DNA from: Escherichia coli | Lineage (GTDB): Bacteria > Pseudomonadota > Gammaproteobacteria > Enterobacterales > Enterobacteriaceae | Length of the DNA stretch: 64,000 nt | Direction: 5' to 3' (one strand) | Assembly: GCF_003334335.1 (NCBI RefSeq) | Contig: NZ_QOWQ01000006.1 | Part shown: piece by piece, positions 2,791-32,931 of the stretch | How the letters are laid out: each line of letters starts with the position of its first letter | Position numbering within the stretch: position 1 is the stretch's first letter | Program-made: the position numbers and the translations under genes | The notes under the pieces: model-generated | Told to the model about the DNA's origin: nothing | What the model saw: only the letters and a program-made list of their open reading frames with translations | Database searches by the model: none

Positions 2791-3747
2791 ATGCTACAAA
2801 ATTGCGCACAATCAAATTGCCGCATTATTCCTAAGAAATTACGCGATATGAAACGTGAAGAGATTTGCCGCTTGCTGGCGGATAAAGTTAATAAACTGAA
2901 AAATAAAGAAAATAGTTTGTCAGAACTGTTGCCCGATGTGCGTTTGTTGTATGGCGAGACGCCTTTCGCACGTACACCGGTGATGTACGAGCCTGGCATC
3001 ATAATTCTCTTTTCCGGGCATAAAATCGGTTATATCAATGAACGCGTGTTTCGTTATGATGCCAATGAATACCTGCTGCTGACGGTGCCGTTGCCGTTTG
3101 AGTGCGAAACCTATGCCACGTCAGAGGTGCCGCTGGCAGGGTTGCGTCTCAATGTCGATATTTTGCAGTTACAGGAACTGTTGATGGACATTGGCGAAGA
3201 TGAGCATTTCCAGCCGTCGATGGCAGCCAGCGGGATTAACTCCGCCACGTTATCAGAAGAGATTTTATGCGCGGCGGAGCGGTTACTCGACGTGATGGAG
3301 CGACCACTGGATGCGCGTATTCTCGGCAAACAGATCATCCGCGAAATTCTGTACTACGTGCTGACCGGACCTTGCGGCGGCGCGTTACTGGCGCTGGTCA
3401 GTCGCCAGACTCACTTCAGTCTGATTAGCCGCGTGCTGAAACGGATTGAGAATAAATACACCGAAAACCTGAGCGTCGAGCAACTGGCGGCAGAAGCCAA
3501 CATGAGCGTATCGGCGTTCCACCATAATTTTAAGTCTGTCACCAGTACCTCGCCGTTGCAGTATTTGAAGAATTACCGTCTGCATAAGGCGCGGATGATG
3601 ATCATCCATGACGGCATGAAGGCCAGCGCAGCAGCGATGCGCGTCGGCTATGAAAGCGCATCGCAATTTAGCCGTGAGTTTAAACGTTACTTCGGTGTGA
3701 CGCCGGGGGAAGATGCGGCAAGAATGCGGGCGATGCAGGGGAATTAA
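2791..3747 (+). CDS. yqhC: AraC-family transcriptional activator of yqhD-dkgA
   Basis: ORF 2620..3747; start placed at Met giving 318 aa ([13 protein letters not shown]...); C-terminal AraC-type HTH; divergent from yqhD. Confidence 0.85.
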
Positions 3748-3786
3748 ATACGTTCCCGGTACAGCAACCGGGAACGGGGAAAATCG

Positions 3787-4446
3787 TCAGGCGTTACAGT
3801 ATTTTTTTTTAATCACCACAAACAGCGTGCCTAACAAGCCAGCGGTTAACAAGGCAATTGGCAGGATCATCAGGAACGTCATTACCTGATCTTCATGGCG
3901 TTTAACGAACGGAATCATACTTAAGGCATAGCCAAAACTGGTTACCACGCTGACCCACAGCAATCCACTTAACCAGTTGAAAAACTGGAAGCGGCGGTTT
4001 GGCAGACCGGAAATTCCCGCCATGGTTGGCAGCAGCGTACGGACAAATGCAAGAAAACGTCCAGCCAGCAGCGCCAGCAGACCGTGGCGGTCAAACATGC
4101 AGGTGGCGCGCTGGTGATATTTAGCAGGAAGCTGTGCCAGCCAGCCTTTCACCGTTTTGGTATTCCCTAACCAGCGCCCCTGAATATAACTTAGCCAGCA
4201 GCCCAGACTTGCTGCGGCGGTCAGAATCGCAATCGTAGGCAGAAAATCCATAACCCCCTGGGCAATCAATGCGCCTGCCAGTATCAACAAGCTGTCGCCT
4301 GGCAAAAATGAGGCGGGCAGCAGGCCGTTTTCTAAAAACAGCGTGGCAAACATGACAAAGTAAACAACGCTAACAATATGAGGATCCGCCAGCGCGGCAA
4401 AGTCGTGTTGCCAGAGCGCAGCGATGATATCTTGAATAACAGCCAT
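3787..4446 (-). CDS. yghB: DedA-family inner membrane protein
   Basis: 219-aa hydrophobic ORF with DedA-like sequence; located downstream of metC. Confidence 0.85.
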
Positions 4447-4585
4447 GGACTTTCCTGTGGAACAGCGTTTAAGCCTTTATCTGCCTATTGTACTCCTGAA
4501 TCGTCCGGGACGCCTTGATCCCGGACGCAACAATTTAAGACTTTTCACAATAAAATGTCTGCAAAATTGTCCAAAAGTGGCAATG

Positions 4586-5773
4586 TTATACAATTCGCGC
4601 AAAACCGGCGTCCAGATCGGCAATCAGATCGTCGACATCTTCCAGACCAATATGCAGGCGAATCAAGGTCCCGCTAAAATCGATCTCGCCTTGTGGGCGA
4701 ATGGCGGCGATATGTTCTGGTTGATTTGCCAGGATCAACGATTCATACCCGCCCCACGAGTAGGCCATGCTGAATAAACTGAAGTTATCCAGATAGTTCG
4801 CCAGCTCTTCATTATTGAGTTTTTTCTTAAGCACAAAGGAAAATAGCCCGCTGCTGCCTGTAAAGTCTCGTTTCCAGAATTCGTGACCTTTACTGCCAGG
4901 CAGAGCAGGGTGGTTAACTCGCGCAACTTGCGGATGTTCTGCCAGCCATTCAGCCACTTTCAGACTGCTTTCATGATGTTGACGCAAACGCACACCTAAT
5001 GTGCGCAGGCCACGGCTGGTTATATAGGCGGTATCGGCATCGACCATCTGGCCCATCAGATAGGCATTTTCCCGTAGCTGCTCCCAGCAACGGGCATTGC
5101 ACACGGCAGTGCCAATCATCGCATCTGAATGCCCAACCAGATATTTGGTGGCGGCTTGAATAGAAACATCGATGCCAAAATCCAGCGCCTTAAACAGCAC
5201 ACCGGCTGCCCAGGTGTTGTCGATCATAATGATGGCATCCGGCACCACACTGCGTACGGCGGCAACAATCGCCGGAACGTCGTGGACTTCCATGGTGATG
5301 GAGCCTGGCGATTCCAGAAACACGATTTTAGTGTTTGGCTGCAGATGCTTAACGATATCGGCACCAATCAGCGGATCAAACCATGATGTCGTTACGCCCA
5401 GTTTGCTGAGGATTTTGCTACAGAAATCCTGACTCGGTTCATAGGCGGTGTTGGTCATCAACACATGATCGCCCTGTTCGATAAAAGCAAGAATGGAATT
5501 AGCAACCGCTGCCGCCCCGCAGGGAAATAGCACGCAGCCTGCGCCACCTTCCAGTTCACACATCGCTTGTTGTAAGGAGAAATGGGTTAACGTTCCGCGC
5601 CGTCCATAGAACAACTCTCCATTGGCGCGATTACGTGTCGCGTGTTTTTTGGCTTCTACACTGTCAAAGACCAGCGAAGAAGCGCGCTGAATCACGCTAT
5701 TTACCGCGCCGAGAGAGTATTTTTTGCTGCGTCCTGCATTCACCAGTTGAGTATCAAGCTTTTTGTCCGCCAT
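4586..5773 (-). CDS. metC: cystathionine beta-lyase
   Basis: ORF 4586..5908; start placed at [19 protein letters not shown] (395 aa); PLP-dependent Cys/Met metabolism fold. Confidence 0.9.
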
Positions 5774-7465: not shown

Positions 7466-8347
7466 ACCTAAATGCTCGCCGCCGCACACGCCGTGCACTT
7501 CTGCGGTGACGTAGCTCGACTCCTGACTTGCCAGATAAACATATACAGGGGCCAGTTCCGCCGGTTGCCCCGCACGTTTCATCGGCGTTTGCTGACCAAA
7601 CTGCGGGATCTTATCCTGCGTTTGTCCGCCGGAAATTTGCAGTGCTGTCCAGATCGGGCCTGGCGCGACAATATTCACCCGAATACCTTTCTCCGCGACC
7701 TGTTTTGCCAAGCCACGGCTGTAGTTCAGAATCGCCGCCTTCGTAGCCGCATAGTCCAGTAAATGCGGACTTGGCTGGTATGCCTGGATTGACGAAGTGG
7801 TGATGATACTTGCACCTTTCGGTAGCAGGGGGATCGCTTCCTGGGTTAGCCAGAACAGCGCGAAAACGTTAATGGCAAAGGTCTTTTGAAACTGTTCGCT
7901 GGTGAGGTCTGCAATATCCGGAATGGCAACCTGTTTCCCGGCGACCAGCGCCATAATATCCAGCCCGCCTAACGCCTTGTGCGCTTCGTGAACCAGCGAA
8001 CGGGCAAATTTCTCATCGCTTAAATCGCCTGGCAGCAGAACGGCTTTGCGTCCGCATTCTTCAATGATCTTTTTCACATCCTGAGCGTCTTCTTCTTCCA
8101 CGGGAAGATAACTGATCGCCACGTCAGCCCCTTCACGCGCGTAAGCGATGGCGGCAGCGCGACCTATTCCGGAATCGCCCCCTGTCACCAGTGCTTTACG
8201 ATCTTTCAGGCGACCGCTACCAACATAGGTTTTCTCGCCGCAATCCGGTACCGGTGTCATCTTCGCCTGGATGCCTGGCGTCGGTTGTTTCTGTTTGGGA
8301 TATTCACCAGTGTAATACTGCGTGGTCGGGTCTTTTAAATGAGACAT
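7463..8347 (-). CDS. yghA: short-chain dehydrogenase/reductase family oxidoreductase
   Basis: 294-aa ORF; SDR glycine-rich motif [12 protein letters not shown]. Confidence 0.9.
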
Positions 8348-8468
8348 CGTTTTTCTCCCTTCAGGTTCAACGTCCTTTAAGGGTAGACGTTCTCGATGCG
8401 TTGATAAGGGAACCAGGAAGATCCCTAAACCTCAGAATTATGCGACAAAGGTTTAACGTATATGTTGA

Positions 8469-9032
<564 letters not shown>

Positions 9033-9071
9033 TCTGATTCGGGCGCGGTTCGCGCGCCCGTTATTAACAGG

Positions 9072-10112
9072 TCATTTATCGGAAGACGCCTGCCACAGAT
9101 TCAGCTCGCCATCGGCGATATGCTGATCAATCTGCGCCAGCTCCTTGGTGCTAAATGTCAGATTATTCAGCGCCTGCACGTTCTCCTCTAGTTGCTCCGC
9201 GCGGCTGGCACCAATCAATACCGACGTCACGCGATCATCTTTCAGCAACCAGCTTAACGCCATTTGCGCCATTGATTGTCCACGCTGCTGTGCCATTTCA
9301 TTCAATAAGCGCAGGCTGTTGAGGTTGGCTTCGGTAAGCATTTTCGGTGTCAGACCACGAACTTTATTCCCTTCACGATGCATCCGTGAATCTTGCGGAA
9401 TGCCGTTGAGATATTTTCCGGTCAGCAATCCCTGAGCCAGAGGAGTAAAGGCAATACAGCCCACGCCGTTATTTTGCAGGGTATCCAGCAGGCCGCTTTT
9501 ATCCACCCAGCGGTTCAGTAAATTGTACGAAGGTTGATGAATTAACAGCGGAATTTTCCACTCGCGCAGCAACTCGACCATTTTTTGCGTCCGCTCTGGC
9601 GAGTAAGAGGAGATCCCGACATACAGCGCCTTACCGCTTTGTACCGCATGAGCCAGCGCAGAGGCGGTTTCTTCCATCGGCGTATTTTCATCGACGCGAT
9701 GAGAGTAAAAGATATCGACATACTCAAGCCCCATACGCTTCAGGCTTTGGTCGAGGCTGGCGAGCAGGTATTTACGTGAACCGCCAGAGCCGTAAGGGCC
9801 GGGCCACATATCGTAGCCAGCCTTGGTAGAGATAATCAGTTCATCGCGATAAGCGGCAAAATCCTCCCGCAGCAGGCGACCAAAGTTCTCTTCTGCGCTT
9901 CCTGGAGGCGGCCCGTAATTGTTGGCTAAATCAAAGTGCGTAATGCCCAAATCAAACGCTTTACGCAGGATCGCACGCTGTGATTCCAGCGCGTTAACGT
10001 GACCGAAATTGTGCCATAAACCGAGCGATAACGCGGGCAGGCGTAAACCACTTTTTCCGCAATAGCGGTATTGCATCTGCCCGTAACGTTCGGGATTCGC
10101 TAACCAGACCAT
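9072..10112 (-). CDS. yghZ: L-glyceraldehyde 3-phosphate reductase (aldo-keto reductase)
   Basis: 346-aa ORF with aldo-keto reductase family sequence. Confidence 0.9.
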   Translation of the reverse strand: MVWLANPERYGQMQYRYCGKSGLRLPALSLGLWHNFGHVNALESQRAILRKAFDLGITHFDLANNYGPPPGSAEENFGRLLREDFAAYRDELIISTKAGYDMWPGPYGSGGSRKYLLASLDQSLKRMGLEYVDIFYSHRVDENTPMEETASALAHAVQSGKALYVGISSYSPERTQKMVELLREWKIPLLIHQPSYNLLNRWVDKSGLLDTLQNNGVGCIAFTPLAQGLLTGKYLNGIPQDSRMHREGNKVRGLTPKMLTEANLNSLRLLNEMAQQRGQSMAQMALSWLLKDDRVTSVLIGASRAEQLEENVQALNNLTFSTKELAQIDQHIADGELNLWQASSDK

Positions 10113-23185: not shown

Positions 23186-23878
23186 CTAGTGATAACCACG
23201 CGCGGTCATAAAATCCGTAATCGCTTTTTCTGCATCAACCAACACCTGTTCCAGTGGCTGATTGGCATCGATATCAACCAGTTGTGCACCACCAAAGGTT
23301 AACTGTGGCGTTATGGCAATCTTCCTCGCCAGCGATTCCCGTTTATGGTCGGGTTTACGTGCACAGGCAACTTCAAGGTCAACATTGAGTTTGATGACCA
23401 GATCAGGCTTATGGCTCGCCATCCAGTGAAACGCTTTACGTTCCTGGCTTGCCAGCCATGAGACAAAACGACCACCTTCAACGTTAGGTGGGAACACCGT
23501 ACCATCGTAAGCGCCAGGAATTTGGTCCTGAGGATAACGGTCGGTTAGAACAATTAACCCGCGACGACGACAGGCAAGCATATGACGAAAGCGCAGTAAG
23601 CGACGGGCGACAAACGCTGTAATTACCAGCGCCGGAACTGGTCCAGGCAATTTTTTTGCTGTTTTCACCTGATTTCGTTCAATTGTTTTATGTAAGGATT
23701 TTCCCATCAACGGTAATTTTGTCACTGCACGACCGACATTTCCGGCCTGTTTTCCTAAATGAACTCTTTCGGCAGCACCATATTTTTCGACAACGGTAAT
23801 AAGATGTTCACACACCGTTGACTTGCCTGAACCATCGCTACCAATAACGGCAATTAATGGAGGTGTTATTGACTGCAT
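23186..23878 (-). CDS. yghT: P-loop NTPase, kinase-like (Walker A plus DRYP motif)
   Basis: 230 aa; [11 protein letters not shown]alker [10 protein letters not shown] motif; paralogous to yghS and yghR. Confidence 0.8.
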
Positions 23879-24051
23879 GAATATATCCTTTAATTTAAAT
23901 ATCCATTAAAAATATTTATTTGGTTAATATGTTTTTATGAAAGCGTAATTCAGGTCAATGTCACAATTAACCATTGTCACAATAAGGTTGAACGGATATT
24001 CTGAGCACGGACCACGTAATATTCAATACATTATTTACTGCCGGGTTTTTC

Positions 24052-24765
24052 GTGAATCAACGTAATATGTCAATAATTAATTCCACGCCAGTGCGTGTTA
24101 TTGCCATTGTAGGATGTGATGGTTCAGGTAAATCGACCCTCACGGCAAGCCTGGTAAATGAACTGGCAGCAAGAATGCCAACAGAACACATTTATCTCGG
24201 GCAATCGTCCGGGCGAATTGGCGAATGGATTTCACAGCTCCCTGTTATTGGCGCACCTTTTGGGCGTTATCTGCGAAGTAAAGCGGCACATGTGCACGAA
24301 AAGCCCTCAACACCGCCTGGCAATATTACTGCACTGGTTATCTATCTGCTTTCCTGCTGGCGGGCGTACAAGTTTCGCAAAATGTTGTGTAAAAGCCAGC
24401 AAGGCTTTCTGCTCATCACCGACCGCTACCCGCAGGTTGAAGTGCCGGGGTTTCGCTTTGATGGCCCGCAATTGGCAAAAACCACGGGCGGTAACGGTTG
24501 GATAAAAATGTTAAGGCAGCGCGAGCTGAAGCTGTACCAATGGATGGCATCTTATTTGCCCGTATTGTTGATTCGTCTTGGCATTGATGAACAAACCGCG
24601 TTTGCGCGTAAACCTGACCACCAACTGGCAGCGTTACAGGAAAAAATCGCCGTTACGCCGCAACTGACATTCAATGGCGCAAAGATCCTTGAACTGGATG
24701 GGCGACACCCCGCCGATGAAATTCTGCAAGCGTCACTACGCGCAATTCACGCCGCGCTTTCCTGA
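24052..24765 (+). CDS. yghS: P-loop NTPase, kinase-like
   Basis: 237 aa; VGCDGSGKSTL Walker A; ITDRYPQVE motif. Confidence 0.8.
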   Translation: MNQRNMSIINSTPVRVIAIVGCDGSGKSTLTASLVNELAARMPTEHIYLGQSSGRIGEWISQLPVIGAPFGRYLRSKAAHVHEKPSTPPGNITALVIYLLSCWRAYKFRKMLCKSQQGFLLITDRYPQVEVPGFRFDGPQLAKTTGGNGWIKMLRQRELKLYQWMASYLPVLLIRLGIDEQTAFARKPDHQLAALQEKIAVTPQLTFNGAKILELDGRHPADEILQASLRAIHAALS

Positions 24766-25600: not shown

Positions 25601-26950
25601 TTGGCGGGTTTTAACATCAAACATTGGTTTGCAGATGGCGCGTTTCGCACCATTATTCGCAATAGCGCCTGGTTAGGCTCCAGTAATGTCGTGAGCGCCT
25701 TGCTGGGTCTGTTGGCGCTCTCGTGTGCCGGTAAAGGGATGACGCCCGCCATGTTTGGCGTACTGGTGATTGTGCAATCGTACGCCAAGTCGATCAGCGA
25801 TTTTATTAAGTTTCAGACATGGCAACTGGTGGTTCAGTACGGAACACCAGCATTAACCAACAATAATCCGCAGCAATTCCGCAATGTCGTCTCATTTTCC
25901 TTCTCGCTGGATATCGTCAGCGGCGCGGTGGCGATTGTCGGTGGCATTGCCTTACTGCCATTCCTTTCCCATTCATTAGGTCTGGATGACCAAAGTTTTT
26001 GGCTGGCAGCGCTCTATTGCACGCTCATTCCTTCAATGGCTTCCTCCACGCCGACCGGCATTCTGCGTGCGGTAGATCGCTTCGATTTAATTGCTGTACA
26101 GCAGGCGACGAAACCTTTTCTGCGCGCAGCGGGGAGCGTCGTAGCCTGGTATTTTGACTTTGGTTTTGCGGGTTTTGTTATTGCCTGGTACGTGTCGAAT
26201 CTGGTTGGCGGCACCATGTACTGGTGGTTTGCCGCGCGCGAATTACGCCGCCGAAATATCCATAACGCCTTCAAATTGAATCTGTTTGAGTCTGCCCGAT
26301 ACATTAAAGGCGCGTGGAGTTTTGTCTGGTCAACCAACATTGCCCACTCCATCTGGTCGGCGCGTAACTCGTGCAGCACAGTGTTGGTGGGGATCGTGTT
26401 AGGACCCGCTGCCGCCGGGTTATTTAAAATCGCCATGACATTCTTCGACGCCGCCGGAACGCCAGCGGGTTTGCTGGGTAAAAGTTTTTACCCAGAGGTG
26501 ATGCGTTTAGATCCGCGCACCACCAGACCGTGGTTGTTAGGTGTGAAGTCCGGTTTACTGGCGGGCGGAATCGGTATTCTGGTGGCGCTCGCGGTGTTGA
26601 TCGTCGGCAAGCCGCTCATTTCGCTGGTGTTTGGCGTTAAGTATCTCGAAGCGTATGACCTGATTCAGGTGATGCTGGGCGCAATTGTGATTTCGATGCT
26701 GGGCTTCCCTCAGGAGTCATTGCTATTGATGGCGGGAAAACAGCGCGCTTTTCTCGTGGCGCAAACCATCGCCTCAATCGGCTACATCGTATTGCTGTTC
26801 ATGTTCTGTCATCTGTTTGGTGTGCTGGGAGCAGCGTTTGCTTACTTCGGTGGGCAATGTCTGGACGTGGCGCTCTCGTTAATTCCAACCTTAAAGGCAT
26901 TTTTTCAGCGCCATTCCTTGCTTTATAACGCAGCCGGAGAGAAATCCTGA
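25601..26950 (+). CDS. yghQ: MOP-superfamily (Wzx/MurJ-like) polysaccharide/lipid flippase-type membrane protein
   Basis: 449-aa polytopic membrane ORF; TTG start as listed, true start uncertain; stop overlaps next start (TGATG). Confidence 0.75.
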   Translation: MAGFNIKHWFADGAFRTIIRNSAWLGSSNVVSALLGLLALSCAGKGMTPAMFGVLVIVQSYAKSISDFIKFQTWQLVVQYGTPALTNNNPQQFRNVVSFSFSLDIVSGAVAIVGGIALLPFLSHSLGLDDQSFWLAALYCTLIPSMASSTPTGILRAVDRFDLIAVQQATKPFLRAAGSVVAWYFDFGFAGFVIAWYVSNLVGGTMYWWFAARELRRRNIHNAFKLNLFESARYIKGAWSFVWSTNIAHSIWSARNSCSTVLVGIVLGPAAAGLFKIAMTFFDAAGTPAGLLGKSFYPEVMRLDPRTTRPWLLGVKSGLLAGGIGILVALAVLIVGKPLISLVFGVKYLEAYDLIQVMLGAIVISMLGFPQESLLLMAGKQRAFLVAQTIASIGYIVLLFMFCHLFGVLGAAFAYFGGQCLDVALSLIPTLKAFFQRHSLLYNAAGEKS

Positions 26951-27774
26951 TGATGAGAAAATATTTCCCGCTTGAGGCGAGCGAGCGTCTATTTGTTGCG
27001 ATTGAAGAAGATGATGTCGTTGATGCACAGGTTAGTTTGCCGCCGACTATTGCACTAAGTTGTACCACCGAAATCATTCATGATAATTACGCGTTATGCC
27101 TGCAATTCTGGCTCAATGGCGTTGATCGTCAGGAGTTACTGCGTTTAGTTCGCAAACAAGCCAAAGGCGATGAGCTGACTGCTGATGAGCGCAAACAATT
27201 TAAATACATGCGAGCGCGCTACAAGCACCTGCGTTTTGCGCAACGGCTGTATTTAAAGAAGCATCAGGCCGGATTTTTATTCGGCAAAACGACCGTTTTT
27301 CTGGGGCGTTTTCAGGACGGCTTTCGTAACGGTAAGAAAAATATTGTGTCGTATTACGGCAACCTGTTACGGATTTATTTAAGCTCTCCGGTCTGGTCGT
27401 TGGTGAACTATTCATTACGCCATAGCCAGTTAGAAAGCGTAAGCAGTTTTATTGCCTATCGGCAAAAGCAAATGCATACCCTGAAAGAGATTATTGCCAA
27501 ACCGCGACTAACCGGTAGGGAATTTCATGATGTGCGAAAAATCATCAGCCAGCAGGTTTCTTATTACGACACCTTAAGATCGCTTGATCCTGAAAATAAA
27601 GAGGCGTTACAGATATCCCGCTTCCTCGCCGCCATTAATGGCCTGATGGGAGATAAACACGACGACATGGTGGCGGATGATATGGAAAACCGCCAGTCGT
27701 ATGATGCACCGGTGGCGCTGGATAGCGATATTCGTCAGCGCTTAGAGCTGCTGATTTCGCGTTTTCCGCTATAG
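26950..27774 (+). CDS. hypothetical protein, no recognisable domain
   Basis: 274-aa ORF translationally coupled to yghQ; basic/charged, no transmembrane segment or nucleotide-binding motif seen. Confidence 0.55.
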   Translation: MMRKYFPLEASERLFVAIEEDDVVDAQVSLPPTIALSCTTEIIHDNYALCLQFWLNGVDRQELLRLVRKQAKGDELTADERKQFKYMRARYKHLRFAQRLYLKKHQAGFLFGKTTVFLGRFQDGFRNGKKNIVSYYGNLLRIYLSSPVWSLVNYSLRHSQLESVSSFIAYRQKQMHTLKEIIAKPRLTGREFHDVRKIISQQVSYYDTLRSLDPENKEALQISRFLAAINGLMGDKHDDMVADDMENRQSYDAPVALDSDIRQRLELLISRFPL

Positions 27775-27782
27775 CCGGAGCA

Positions 27783-28346
27783 ATGATGTCATCTCGTTTG
27801 ATTATTGCGTTGATTATCATGCTCTTAGCCCCGGGTGTGCAGGCACACAATTTCGTCACTGGCAAAACGGTTACCCCTGTTTATATCCAGGAAGGCGGCG
27901 AGCTGCTTCTGAATAGCGACGACGAAATTCACTACCAAAAGTGGAACAGCACACAATTAGCGGGAAAAGTCCGCATTATTCAGTATATCGCCGGGCGTAA
28001 GTCGGCGAAGAAAAAGAACTCACTGTTAATTAAAGCGGTTGAAGCGGCAAACTTTCCGCAGGATCGTTTTCAGCCCACCACCATTGTGAACACCGATGAT
28101 GCCATCTTTGGTACTGGCTATTTTGTTGTTGGCAAAATCGAAAAAAATAAACGCCGCTATCCGTGGGCGCAATTCGTTATTGACGGCAATGGACAGGGAC
28201 GCGTTGCCTGGCGCTTGCCGGAGCAGAGTTCAACCATTCTGGTGCTGAATAAAGCCGGGCAAATTCAGTGGGCAAAGGACGGCAGCCTGACGCCGGAAGA
28301 GGTAGATCATGTCATTGCGTTGGCGCAGAAACTGATCAATGAATAA
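27783..28346 (+). CDS. YtfJ-family periplasmic protein (signal peptide)
   Basis: 187 aa; N-terminal signal peptide MMSSRLIIALIIMLLAPGVQA; motifs TTIVNTDDAI and WAKDGSLTPEEV resemble E. coli YtfJ as I recall it. Confidence 0.55.
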   Translation: MMSSRLIIALIIMLLAPGVQAHNFVTGKTVTPVYIQEGGELLLNSDDEIHYQKWNSTQLAGKVRIIQYIAGRKSAKKKNSLLIKAVEAANFPQDRFQPTTIVNTDDAIFGTGYFVVGKIEKNKRRYPWAQFVIDGNGQGRVAWRLPEQSSTILVLNKAGQIQWAKDGSLTPEEVDHVIALAQKLINE

Positions 28347-28376
28347 AAAACTCAAAGGATTGAGGGCGTTAGTGAG

Positions 28377-29447
28377 ATGAAGCTGGTTGAACACTACATC
28401 ATGCGTGGTACGCGCCGTCTGGTGCTGATTATCGTCGGTTTTCTGATCTTTATTTTCGCCAGCTACTCCGCACAGCGTTATCTGACCGAAGCGGCAAATG
28501 GGACATTAGCTCTTGATGTTGTGCTGGATATCGTTTTCTACAAAGTACTGATTGCACTGGAGATGTTGTTACCTGTTGGTCTGTATGTGTCAGTTGGCGT
28601 GACGCTAGGGCAGATGTATACCGACTCGGAAATTACCGCTATCTCTGCGGCGGGGGGCAGTCCGGGACGCTTGTACAAAGCCGTTCTTTATCTGGCGATA
28701 CCGCTAAGTATTTTTGTCACCCTTCTGTCGATGTATGGTCGTCCGTGGGCTTATGCGCAGATTTATCAACTGGAGCAGCAGTCGCAGTCGGAGCTGGATG
28801 TTCGCCAGTTGCGGGCAAAGAAATTTAACACTAACGATAACGGACGAATGATCCTTTCGCAGACGGTTGATCAGGATAATAATCGCCTGACTGACGCGCT
28901 GATTTATACTTCTACTGCCAATCGAACCCGCATTTTCCGCGCCCGTTCGGTTGATGTGGTTGACCCATCACCCGAGAAACCGACCGTTATGTTGCACAAC
29001 GGCACTGCCTATCTTATCGATCATCAGGGGCGTGATGACAACGAACAGATCTACCGTAATCTGCAATTACATCTGAATCCGCTGGATCAAAGCCCTAACG
29101 TCAAACGCAAAGCGAAATCGGTCACGGAGCTGGCGCGCTCCGTCTTTCCAGCCGATCATGCCGAACTGCAATGGCGGCAAAGCCGTGGCCTGACCGCATT
29201 GTTGATGGCGCTGCTGGCCATTTCATTAAGTCGGGTAAAACCGCGGCAAGGGCGATTTTCAACGTTATTGCCACTGACGTTGCTGTTTATTGCCATTTTT
29301 TATGGCGGTGACGTCTGCCGTACGCTGGTGGCTAACGGCGCGATTCCCCTCATTCCTGGTTTGTGGTTAGTACCCGGACTCATGCTAATGGGCCTGCTGA
29401 TGCTGGTCGCACGCGACTTCTCTTTGCTGCAGAAATTTTCCCGATGA
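28377..29447 (+). CDS. LptF/LptG-family (YjgP/YjgQ) permease
   Basis: 356 aa; N-terminal transmembrane helices, large periplasmic insert, C-terminal transmembrane helices, as in LptF/LptG. Confidence 0.7.
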   Translation: MKLVEHYIMRGTRRLVLIIVGFLIFIFASYSAQRYLTEAANGTLALDVVLDIVFYKVLIALEMLLPVGLYVSVGVTLGQMYTDSEITAISAAGGSPGRLYKAVLYLAIPLSIFVTLLSMYGRPWAYAQIYQLEQQSQSELDVRQLRAKKFNTNDNGRMILSQTVDQDNNRLTDALIYTSTANRTRIFRARSVDVVDPSPEKPTVMLHNGTAYLIDHQGRDDNEQIYRNLQLHLNPLDQSPNVKRKAKSVTELARSVFPADHAELQWRQSRGLTALLMALLAISLSRVKPRQGRFSTLLPLTLLFIAIFYGGDVCRTLVANGAIPLIPGLWLVPGLMLMGLLMLVARDFSLLQKFSR

Positions 29448-30523
29448 ATGTTTTCAGCCGCTATTTAATCCGTCATCTCTTTCTCGGTTTTGCCGCCGCC
29501 GCAGGGCTATTGCTGCCGCTTTTTACCACCTTCAACCTGATTAACGAACTGGATGATGTCAGCCCGGGCGGTTATCGCTGGACTCAGGCGGTGCTGGTGG
29601 TGCTAATGACCTTACCGCGCACACTGGTCGAACTTTCGCCATTTATCGCCTTATTGGGAGGGATTGTCGGCCTGGGGCAGTTATCGAAAAACAGTGAGCT
29701 TACCGCCATTCGCAGCATGGGGTTTTCTATCTTCCGTATTGCACTGGTGGCGCTGGTTGCAGGGATATTGTGGACTGTTTCGTTAGGCGCGATAGATGAG
29801 TGGGTAGCGTCGCCATTACAGCAACAGGCGTTGCAAATCAAATCGACCGCCACCGCGTTGGGGGAGGACGATGACATTACCGGCAATATGCTGTGGGCCA
29901 GGCGTGGTAATGAATTTGTGACGGTGAAATCGCTGAACGAGCAGGGCCAGCCGGTGGGCGTGGAGATTTTTCATTATCGCGACGATCTCTCGCTCGAATC
30001 CTACATTTATGCACGCAGTGCCACCATTGAAGACGACAAAACGTGGATCCTGCATGGTGTGAATCATAAAAAATGGCTGAATGGCAAAGAAACGCTGGAA
30101 ACATTAGATAATCTTGCCTGGCAATCGGCCTTCACCAGTATGGATCTTGAAGAGTTATCAATGCCGGGCAATACTTTTTCTGTCCGTCAGCTTAATCATT
30201 ACATCCATTATTTGCAGGAAACCGGGCAACCCAGCAGCGAATACCGCCTTGCACTGTGGGAAAAACTGGGGCAACCCATCCTGACCCTGGCGATGATTTT
30301 GCTGGCTGTGCCGTTTACCTTTAGCGCCCCGCGCTCGCCAGGGATGGGTAGCCGTCTCGCTGTAGGTGTCATCGTTGGCTTACTCACCTGGATCAGCTAT
30401 CAAATCATGGTCAATCTGGGATTGCTATTTGCGTTGAGCGCACCTGTTACCGCGCTCGGTTTACCGATAGCGTTTGTGCTGGTGGCGTTGAGCCTGGTGT
30501 ATTGGTATGACAGACAACATTAA
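29444..30523 (+). CDS. LptF/LptG-family (YjgP/YjgQ) permease, second paralog
   Basis: ORF 29363..30523; start placed at MNVFSRYLIRHLF (ATG 29444 overlaps upstream stop, ATGA); same topology as previous gene. Confidence 0.7.
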   Translation: MNVFSRYLIRHLFLGFAAAAGLLLPLFTTFNLINELDDVSPGGYRWTQAVLVVLMTLPRTLVELSPFIALLGGIVGLGQLSKNSELTAIRSMGFSIFRIALVALVAGILWTVSLGAIDEWVASPLQQQALQIKSTATALGEDDDITGNMLWARRGNEFVTVKSLNEQGQPVGVEIFHYRDDLSLESYIYARSATIEDDKTWILHGVNHKKWLNGKETLETLDNLAWQSAFTSMDLEELSMPGNTFSVRQLNHYIHYLQETGQPSSEYRLALWEKLGQPILTLAMILLAVPFTFSAPRSPGMGSRLAVGVIVGLLTWISYQIMVNLGLLFALSAPVTALGLPIAFVLVALSLVYWYDRQH

Positions 30524-30524
30524 A

Positions 30525-30551
30525 CCCGCCGTGGCGCAACACCACGGCGGG
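30525..30551. terminator. GC-rich hairpin between convergent operons (probable bidirectional terminator)
   Basis: cccgccgtgg-cgcaacac-ccacggcggg lies between the LptG-like stop (30523) and the reconstructed aminotransferase stop (30558). Confidence 0.5.
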
Positions 30552-30557
30552 CTCACA

Positions 30558-31737
30558 TTACTGCTTCAGAGTAGCAAATGCCTGAATGATGGCATCGATT
30601 TGCTCACGACTGTGAGCAGCGTTTACGCTACAGCGCAGCAGCGTGATGCCTGCAGGCGCGGCAGGTGGCAGGTGGCAGGATAAGATTCACATAAACGCCC
30701 AGCGAAATAAGCTCGCGCCAGATGCGTAAACCGTCCTCTTTCGAACCGATTATTACCGGCACTACCGGGCTAATATGTGAACTTAACTCATAACCCAGTT
30801 TTTGCAGACCGTCATACAGATGGTTGGCATTATCCATCAGCTTTTGCCGCAGCTCTGGTTGTGTGGCAATAGTTCTTAACGACGAGCGCACGGTCGCAAT
30901 GCAGGACGGAGAAGGAGAGGCGGTAAAAATATACGGGCGGCTGCCGTAGCGCAGCACTTCCATCGCTTCCGAACCGACAGCAAAACCGCCAATCGAGGCC
31001 AGACTTTTACTGAAGGTGCCAACGATAATATCCACATCATCTTCAACGCCGACAGCTTCAGCCAGTCCGCGCCCCGTTGCGCCTAACACGCCAAACGAAT
31101 GCGCTTCATCGACAATCAAATAACCACCGAGACGACGTTTGATATCAACAATTTCCGCTAACGGCGCAACGTCACCGAGCATGCTGTAGATACCCTCAAC
31201 GATGATAATCGCCTCTTTCGCCCGTTCACCGAGGCGAACCATGCGCCGTTCCAGATCTTTAGCATCGTTATGGCGGAAACGAATAATTTCCGCGCCACCG
31301 AGAGAACAGGCGTCATAAATACTGGCGTGGCTGTCGGCATCCAGTAACACCACGGCGTTATGGTCGGCAAGTGCGCTGATGACGCCTAAATTAGCGGTAT
31401 AACCGGTTGAAAAAACGATAGCGGTAGGGCGATTGAAAAACTCGGCAATCTCTTTCTCTAACGCCAGGTGCGGCGCATAACTGCCGTTTGCCATACGAGA
31501 ACCGGTGGTGCCGGTACCTTGGGCCGCTAACGCGGCCTGACCTTCGCTGATGGCATCATGATTAAAGGTTAAACCGAGATAATTATTGGTCCCGGCCAGA
31601 ATCACTTTTTTATTGCCGATCCGGCCTTCGGTGGCGGAATACACTTCATCAATACAGGTGCCAAACGGTGTTAACCCGTTGTCACTAAATTGCAGTCGCT
31701 CGCCAGCAAGGCGCGCATATTTATCGTATAGCCCCAT
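30558..31737 (-). CDS. alpha-oxoamine synthase (serine palmitoyltransferase/BioF/KBL family), frameshifted near the 3' end; longest intact frame is 30628..31737
   Basis: PLP-lysine motif GTFSKSLASIGGF; listed ORF ends ...ILPPATCRACRHHAAAL; a 7-bp tandem duplication at about 30661-30674 shifts frame; removing one copy gives ...PPAAPAGITLLRCSVNAAHSREQIDAIIQAFATLKQ; ATG overlaps ACP stop (TAATG). Confidence 0.75.
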
Positions 31738-31985
31738 TATTTATTCTCCAGCCATGGAAGTAGAGTTTCCATTAATTGCGCAGGGGTTTTGACATCCAGC
31801 AGAATATTAATAGGAATGGAAATATCGAATCTGTCTTCCAGCATCATTAAGAGATCCATCACTTTGATCGACTCCAGGCCAAGATCGTTGACGAGATCGC
31901 TGTCGGGCTTAATTTCCACACCGTTTTCGACCAAATCCTGTAAACAGGAAAGGATGTAATCCATTACTATTTCACGATTTACCAT
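31737..31985 (-). CDS. acyl carrier protein
   Basis: 82-aa acidic ORF with phosphopantetheine attachment motif DLGLESIK. Confidence 0.8.
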   Translation of the reverse strand: MVNREIVMDYILSCLQDLVENGVEIKPDSDLVNDLGLESIKVMDLLMMLEDRFDISIPINILLDVKTPAQLMETLLPWLENK

Positions 31986-32016
31986 AGAAACGTTAACACA
32001 CCTTTAAACAAGACAA

Positions 32017-32931
32017 TCAAAATAGCCCGTTGCGTAATGCGTGTTCCAGGCTAATCCCGGGAAACCAATTAATATCTTCAGAAATACGGTTATTACTTGC
32101 CGACCAGTCGGCGTGGGTTAATTCACGAATTTTCGAGCGGGTCAGCATAGGTTCTTTACCTGCCAGGCGACTCAACGCGGTACTGATATCCGCAAGGCCG
32201 GTGAGTACCGGCAGAGGAATGCCAACCATTCGCACGGAACCGCAACGGGCGTCGGCGGCAAGTTGCTGTACGCGTTGCCAGTCATAGCCGCCGGCGACGC
32301 CATCGCATAATTCATAGGTTTGCGTCTGTATAGTTTCGGCGCTTAACCACTGACCCACTGCTTGCGCGAAATCGGTGACGTGCAGAAAAGAGAGCTGTGT
32401 ATCTGGCGCACCAAGTCGTGGCAGCAGGCCGCGCAGCATCCAGTCAAACAGCGGTTTTAACTCTTTATCGCCGGGACCATACACGGCTGTCGGGCGAAAA
32501 ACGCCCAGCGTAATTTCGTCCGCCATTGCTGCCAGTCGTTGCTCGGCGACGTATTTGGATTTTGCATACCAGGAGAGCTCGGGATGGCGCGCCGCCAGCG
32601 AAGAGATAAACAGAAAACGTTGGCAAAAGCCGCTCTCTTTTGCTGCTTGCATCAGGCGCAGGCTGCCGTCAACGTTACAGCGGGTGAAAATCTCTTCTTT
32701 GTGCCCGCGCACTTGCCCGGCGCAATGGACCACTACGCTGGCTCCGGCAACCAGCTCGCTAAGTGAATGAGTATCTTCCAGCGAACCGCGCACCCAGGTG
32801 AGATTATCATTGACGTGAGCGCGGGCAGTACGCGTCAATGCGCGAACGTGAAAGCCGCGGGCGAGCAGGTTATCGATAATATATTTACCGATAAACCCGG
32901 TAGCGCCCGTCACCGCGACAGTTTGATTCAT
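32017..32931 (-). CDS. NAD(P)-dependent epimerase/dehydratase-family oxidoreductase (candidate keto-reductase)
   Basis: 304 aa; Rossmann motif VTGATGFIG; catalytic YAKSK (YxxxK); ATG overlaps upstream stop. Confidence 0.75.
   Translation of the reverse strand: MNQTVAVTGATGFIGKYIIDNLLARGFHVRALTRTARAHVNDNLTWVRGSLEDTHSLSELVAGASVVVHCAGQVRGHKEEIFTRCNVDGSLRLMQAAKESGFCQRFLFISSLAARHPELSWYAKSKYVAEQRLAAMADEITLGVFRPTAVYGPGDKELKPLFDWMLRGLLPRLGAPDTQLSFLHVTDFAQAVGQWLSAETIQTQTYELCDGVAGGYDWQRVQQLAADARCGSVRMVGIPLPVLTGLADISTALSRLAGKEPMLTRSKIRELTHADWSASNNRISEDINWFPGISLEHALRNGLF

Follow-up and report, generated by a model that had tools for sequence, protein, structure and literature searches.

The stretch of DNA analysed here, referred to as the window, is 64 kb in size and contains two divergently transcribed genes, yghT and yghS, that encode paralogous P-loop proteins (Table 1). 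The preliminary description had recognised this divergent layout from the open reading frames, and the RefSeq gene names agree with it. The spacer between the two genes covers positions 23879-24051 (173 bp) and has a G+C content of 29%, as compared to 52% for the window, in line with its earlier description as AT-rich. In the RefSeq genomes, yghS is the first gene of a run that comprises yghS-yghR-yghQ and the genes after these, and pitB is located beyond yghT. E. albertii, Citrobacter and Hafnia share the gene order pitB-yghT / yghS-yghR-yghQ and likewise have a spacer of about 173 bp. For E. coli 2013C-3492, the annotation gives yghT as a frameshifted pseudogene, with the spacer and yghS intact. 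A 262-bp low-coverage contig in an assembly of Nocardioides malaquae encodes the last 80 residues of YghT with 100% identity to E. coli, and is almost certainly E. coli contamination.

Within the spacer, the 9-mer TGTCACAAT occurs twice on the + strand and, by exact match, nowhere else in the window; both the sequence and the coordinates reported previously for this pair were correct. The copies start 16 bp apart and are placed in the middle of the spacer, 81 bp from the start codon of yghT and 69 bp from that of yghS. If one mismatch is allowed, the repeat grows to 12 nt (CAATGTCACAAT / CATTGTCACAAT) with the same 16-bp period. Owing to the internal symmetry of TGTCACA, the pair can equally be read as an inverted repeat, TGTcACAAT-taacc-ATTGTcACA, with its centre at 23970.

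Table 1. Features of the yghT-yghS region, with positions in the window and identity to E. coli among seven non-Escherichia species.
Feature	Position	Strand	Description	Identity or matches
yghT	23186-23878	-	P-loop, dTMP-kinase-like protein, 230 aa; ORF, RefSeq annotation and weak dTMP kinase profile match	
Upstream background	23928-23958			39%
Copy 1 of TGTCACAAT	23959-23967	+	Exact match; conserved in its 3' part only, which runs on as ACAATTA	
First four bases of copy 1, TGTC	23959-23962			39%
ACAATTA	23963-23969			82%
Dyad ACAAT-TAACC-ATTGT	23963-23977		Candidate operator, centre at about -39 from the predicted yghS start	
Dyad centre	23970-23972			33%
CATTGTCAC	23972-23980		Conserved block	95%
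Predicted -35, TTGTCA	23974-23979	+	Promoter of yghS(RQ...); invariant in nine species	
Copy 2 of TGTCACAAT	23975-23983	+	Exact match; inside the conserved block CATTGTCAC	
Last T of copy 2	23983			0/7
ATATTCTGA	23995-24004		Block with the predicted -10	80%
Predicted -10, TATTCT	23997-24002	+	17 bp downstream of the -35; part of the conserved block ATATTCTGA	
yghS	24052-24765	+	P-loop protein paralogous to YghT, 237 aa, GTG start; ORF and RefSeq annotation	

To assess how readily such a pair arises, we compared the counts with those in shuffled sequences. The two occurrences of TGTCACAAT in the window compare with 0.74 expected, and at least two were obtained in 14 of 100 shuffles of the whole window. 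Exact 9-mer direct repeats at most 30 bp apart number 13 in the window versus 5.2 ± 2.3 in dinucleotide-preserving shuffles, and 4.3% of the shuffles of the 173-bp spacer alone give one such repeat. A scan of the window, with its dozens of spacers, should thus meet one or two repeats of this kind, and the repeat alone is therefore no evidence of function.

The same spacer contains a second, unrelated direct repeat with a 16-bp period, ATATCCTTTAA / ATATCCATTAA, located at 23883-23909 and adjoining the start of yghT, which indicates that AT-rich DNA yields such pairs readily. The first copy of this repeat holds the ribosome-binding site of yghT (AAGGA, - strand), and a third GGATAT, in inverted orientation at 23994-23999, overlaps the predicted -10 of yghS. 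The repeat is poorly conserved beyond Escherichia and Pseudocitrobacter. A longer imperfect repeat, ACGTAATAT(G)TCAATA(C)ATT(A)ATT, is present at 24012-24036 and 24058-24083, with copies 46 bp apart that match at 22 bases and differ by three one-base gaps. Its first copy is located in the yghS leader over a widely conserved TAATAT / TACAAT block that resembles a -10 element, and its second copy falls within codons 3-10 of yghS.

For comparisons across genera, we used loci from Escherichia species, Pseudocitrobacter, Shimwellia, Pluralibacter and Erwinia, and added loci identified via protein relatives in E. albertii, two Citrobacter species, Hafnia, Sodalis, Klebsiella, Serratia and Mangrovibacter. 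With ATTGTCAC as the anchor, nine species were compared, and identity to E. coli was counted among the seven of these that do not belong to Escherichia (Table 1). Position by position, the number of species out of seven that match E. coli is 0, 4, 3, 4, 5, 6, 6, 5 and 6 in copy 1, and 7, 7, 7, 7, 7, 7, 4, 6 and 0 in copy 2. The segment TTGTCAC at 23974-80 is matched in all seven species, and the outermost T of each copy is specific to Escherichia, with no match in any of the seven.

A motif search in orthologous intergenic regions had been proposed as a check on the repeat; the outcome was that the 9-mer pair is not kept as a repeat, the conserved parts being complementary halves of the two copies. 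This pattern is unlike that of two equivalent tandem sites, and fits either a dyad or a -35 element with a separate upstream element. The preliminary description had suggested a binding site for a dimeric or tandem-binding regulator of both transcription units, and this is supported in part. A conserved non-coding element is indeed present there, and it may be a site for a dimeric protein, but the notion of two equivalent tandem copies could not be upheld, given the 39% identity in the TGTC of copy 1 and the failure of the last T in copy 2 to match in any of the seven species. The composite ACAATTANNCATTGTCAC is present once per locus, at the orthologous position, in the loci compared. The yghT-yghS spacers of Klebsiella, Serratia and Mangrovibacter, which are about 265-445 bp in size and otherwise divergent, have in common the block (ACA)ATTAGCAC(A/G)AA, which resembles the E. 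coli-type ACAATTAnnCATTGTCACAA minus 7 bp.

The spacer was found in 4688 of 5426 complete E. coli genomes, at 96.6-100% identity. The TGTCACAAT pair was unchanged in five sampled E. coli variants, while a few positions close by vary. The 41 bp around the repeat are altered in 3.7% of the E. coli genomes as compared to 15.6% for the 41 bp proximal to yghT, which is mild evidence of constraint on the sequence, limited by the shared ancestry of the genomes. Among the orthologous loci examined, the exact 9-mer pair is restricted to E. coli and two genomes of Escherichia cryptic clades; in E. albertii and E. whittamii, copy 1 reads TGCCACAAT.

A consensus scan of positions 23700-24250 identified TTGTCA-17-TATTCT, with matches at 9 of the 12 consensus positions, as the only sigma-70-like site, although a single hit in 551 bp is not above the 1.6 expected from shuffles. 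In a weight-matrix scan of nine species (from Escherichia, Citrobacter, Hafnia, Pseudocitrobacter, Shimwellia and Sodalis), this site obtained the top promoter score on the + strand in every species. Both hexamers are near consensus, the distance between them falls within 16-18 bp, and the -10 has the A at position 2 and the T at position 6. The hexamers are also kept (TTGTCAC in all seven species, the -10 block at 80%) while the background has drifted to 39%. On the strength of the consensus match and the conservation, we infer that TTGTCA-17-TATTCT is probably an active yghS promoter, with a start site at the position predicted below. A second candidate further downstream, which as TTGAAC-16-TACAAT is a strong match in Klebsiella, Serratia and Sodalis, has decayed to CTGAGC-15-TTCAAT in E. 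coli; since the TACAAT-type -10 is more widely conserved, the main promoter could differ between lineages. Start sites for yghS and yghT were absent from the searchable supplements of start-site papers, one of which does include 5' UTRs of the neighbouring genes pitB, gss and yghU, and this absence fits a silent (silenced) locus.

Taken together, we lean towards an explanation in which copy 2 is the -35 region of the yghS promoter, copy 1 contributes through its 3' half a conserved upstream block that pairs into a 5+5 dyad with the bases next to the -35, and the 9-mer identity is an Escherichia-specific by-product. By this account, which we hold with slightly better than even confidence, copy 2 would supply the -35 TTGTCA, with the -10 TATTCT 17 bp further on, and transcription of yghS would start near 24009, about 43 nt ahead of the GTG. 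Copy 1 would supply only ACAATTA, a conserved block at about -46 to -40, which together with the ATTGT at the -35 would make the short dyad ACAAT-N5-ATTGT, with its centre near -39. Such a dyad could be the target of a dimeric helix-turn-helix regulator that blocks the -35 or acts from a class-II-like position; another option is a contact of the upstream block with the alpha subunit of RNA polymerase. The exact identity at nine of nine positions in E. coli is then attributable to the internal symmetry of ATTGTCACAAT and to two bases specific to Escherichia. Under laboratory conditions, H-NS probably keeps the AT-rich spacer silent. Judged by the conservation pattern, the 9-mers probably do not amount to a pair of equivalent binding units, and we regard the region as an ordinary promoter/operator region with a possible dyad operator. 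The sequences themselves show the matches, their spacing and their conservation, and any binding of a protein is inferred.

The dyad is the only match to ACAATNNNNNATTGT with zero or one mismatch in the window, as compared to 2.6 expected by chance. Its arms ACAAT and ATTGT are matched in 5-7 of the seven species per position versus 33% at the centre. Five-base arms of this kind are however common by chance, and the right arm overlaps the -35 hexamer and is inseparable from it, so that the symmetry is without independent support. The element did not recur above chance in the 64-kb window nor elsewhere in the fetched loci, and was not found in the other divergent control region of the neighbouring lipid gene cluster (34658-34948). 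No regulator gene was consistently adjacent to the locus among the genomes compared. A search against Rfam gave no meaningful match (best E = 0.89, to a Plasmodium family), and the RNA fold was not notably stable relative to shuffles on either the + strand (z = -0.08) or the - strand (z = -1.5).

We also considered other readings of the repeat. If the two TGTCACAAT copies were tandem sites for a direct-repeat regulator that controls both yghT and yghS, bound for example by a response-regulator dimer or by two dimers, one could point to the exact recurrence of a 9-mer with a 16-bp period at the centre of the spacer, to its invariance in the five E. coli variants and the two Escherichia cryptic-clade genomes, and to the persistence of a shorter CACAA...CACAA with the same period in Hafnia and Shimwellia. 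Yet conservation falls on different positions in the two units, with the 5' half of copy 1 at the background level of 39% and that of copy 2 at 100%, and copy 1 is altered already in E. albertii and E. whittamii. Furthermore, a period of 16 bp places the copies on opposite faces of the helix, which does not fit the period of 10-11 bp in tandem sites of the OmpR/PhoB type; no TGTCA is present at an 11-bp period, and the repeat is within the chance expectation for a window scan. We judge tandem sites to be very improbable. A different reading is that the repeat arose by chance in AT-rich, H-NS-bound DNA where the conservation reflects the promoter core only and the upstream block is neutral. Such repeats are seen in 4.3% of the shuffled spacers and 13 times in the window, an unrelated repeat with the same period is present 60-76 bp away in the same spacer, and the motif is not above chance elsewhere in the window. 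We nevertheless consider this reading unlikely in view of the 82% conservation of ACAATTA, as compared to 39% just upstream, and the recurrence of a related AATTAGCAC block in the divergent, longer spacers of Klebsiella, Serratia and Mangrovibacter.

The symmetry would need no regulator site if the ATTGT arms were the outward-facing -35 TTG elements of back-to-back promoters, with TTGTCA serving yghS on the + strand and either TTGTGA (the reverse complement of 23961-66) or GTGACA serving yghT on the - strand. The combination of GTGACA, here the complement of copy 2, with TAGTAT or TATTTT at a distance of 17 bp scores 9.1-9.3 in both Citrobacter species, Hafnia and one related metagenomic contig, which equals the score of the yghS promoter, and the GTGACA of copy 1 in E. 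coli is followed 16 bp downstream by TTTCAT (score 7.0). The -10 candidates on the - strand are however found at no conserved position, and those in E. coli are poor, with TTTCAT lacking the A at position 2 and TGACCT scoring 5.5. In the weight-matrix scan of nine species no consistently placed -10 was identified for a yghT promoter that uses the element, and no start site for yghT is recorded in the start-site supplements searched. We regard back-to-back promoters as a rather doubtful account of the symmetry; a divergent yghT promoter that shares the element is possible, and is not consistently supported by the sequences.

Downstream of yghQ, positions 26950-36168 of the window contain a set of genes that resembles a sphingolipid/ceramide-type lipid cluster with its own transport genes. 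On the + strand, yghQ is followed by genes for a YtfJ-family protein and an LptF-like plus LptG-like pair, and on the - strand are genes for a serine palmitoyltransferase, which scored 555 bits where the curated cutoff is 500, for an NAD-dependent reductase/epimerase and for a fatty acyl-AMP ligase, which reached 878 bits. Next come an ORF of 406 aa without a family match and then glcC. The set of serine palmitoyltransferase, acyl carrier protein, reductase and acyl-AMP ligase accompanies yghSRQ in the window and in other Enterobacterales.

In Klebsiella, Serratia and Mangrovibacter, genes for an aminotransferase, an acyl carrier protein, an epimerase and an AMP-ligase are located directly after yghT (at about 3300-5730 in the fetched loci), a position that is occupied by pitB in E. 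coli. This placement suggests a functional tie to yghT, yghS, yghR and yghQ, and the gene orders suggest that these four genes belong functionally with the lipid cluster and are separated from lipid genes by pitB in E. coli. In the K-12 derivative XL1-Blue, the stretch with the lipid cluster is missing beyond yghQ, which is truncated there: the annotation has it broken off after 1065 nt, and mobB-mobA-yihD-srkA-dsbA come next (locus positions 7723-9550). On the standard K-12 map these genes lie far from yghQ, which suggests a rearrangement in the strain or in the assembly, its breakpoint being in yghQ.

In itself, the repeat is of little importance, being mostly a likely promoter -35 box with an adjoining conserved block. 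What is gained is a concrete model of the promoter that would serve yghS and its downstream genes, and a delimited stretch of 20 bp at 23963-23982 for mutation or for use as a bait for regulators. It is conceivable, if rather improbable, that the conserved 20-bp ACAATTAnnCATTGTCACAA is the operator of a dimeric regulator that switches yghS-yghR-yghQ and the downstream LptFG-like genes on, or keeps them off; if so, a cryptic lipid pathway of the sphingolipid type would be controlled in E. coli through ACAATTAnnCATTGTCACAA. Learning how the lipid cluster is switched on could help to find the conditions under which it is expressed. The presence of a sphingolipid-type gene set beside yghTSRQ is more intriguing than the repeat.

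Previous studies have placed yghS in the H-NS regulon, with a 3.1-fold increase of its mRNA on overexpression of SlyA (PMC5797941). The 29% G+C content of the spacer and the response of yghS to both proteins are reminiscent of H-NS silencing with counter-silencing of the SlyA/LeuO type. The table of EMSA fragments in the same paper does not include the yghS promoter region among those given (PMC5797941). The only TTAN6TAA in the spacer, as a candidate SlyA/MarR-type site, is located at 23916-23927, off the repeat. A weak genomic-SELEX peak for FlhDC has been assigned to the yghT-yghS spacer, and the boxes predicted in that study map to 23706-23749 inside yghT, about 210 bp from the repeat (PMC9962212).

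Several other motifs were compared with the repeat. The TGTCA core in direct orientation and the phosphate transporter gene pitB next beyond yghT recall the Pho box, in which CTGTCAT direct repeats are bound by PhoB with a period of 11 bp, but the period here is 16 bp, conservation does not extend to the T and G of copy 1, and no TGTCA pair with an 11-bp period was found on either strand of the spacer. TGTGA, as in the CRP site TGTGA-N6-TCACA, is read on the - strand at both copies, opposite their TCACA, and no partner half-site at N6 was found in the spacer, even with the relaxed pattern TGTnA-N6-TnACA. A pattern search for FNR gave no hit at the repeat. Operators of phage 434 and of the Xre type have the form ACAA-N6-TTGT. 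The outward ACAA...TTGT arms with an unconstrained centre are similar to these, except that the spacing here is N7 rather than N6, and no Xre-type gene is located beside the locus in the genomes examined. Inspection by eye against consensus sequences indicated the lac operator half-site AATTGTGA in the wrong orientation, and wrong spacing or missing halves for the ArcA box, DnaA box, IHF, and sigma-E and sigma-54 promoters. Among all of these patterns, no known regulator motif fits the dyad.

There is also a close resemblance to a sigma-70 promoter whose -35 hexamer has a dyad operator overlapping it or adjacent to it. The -35 TTGTCA matches the consensus at five of six positions and the -10 TATTCT at four of six, including the key A2 and T6, at a distance of 17 bp, and this pair of hexamers is conserved across six genera. 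The difference is that the arms of the dyad are only 5 bp in size here and that the right arm coincides with the -35. The centre of the dyad near -39/-40 is likewise similar to the layout of class II activators, as in the CRP/FNR-type, and of many repressors that occlude the -35.
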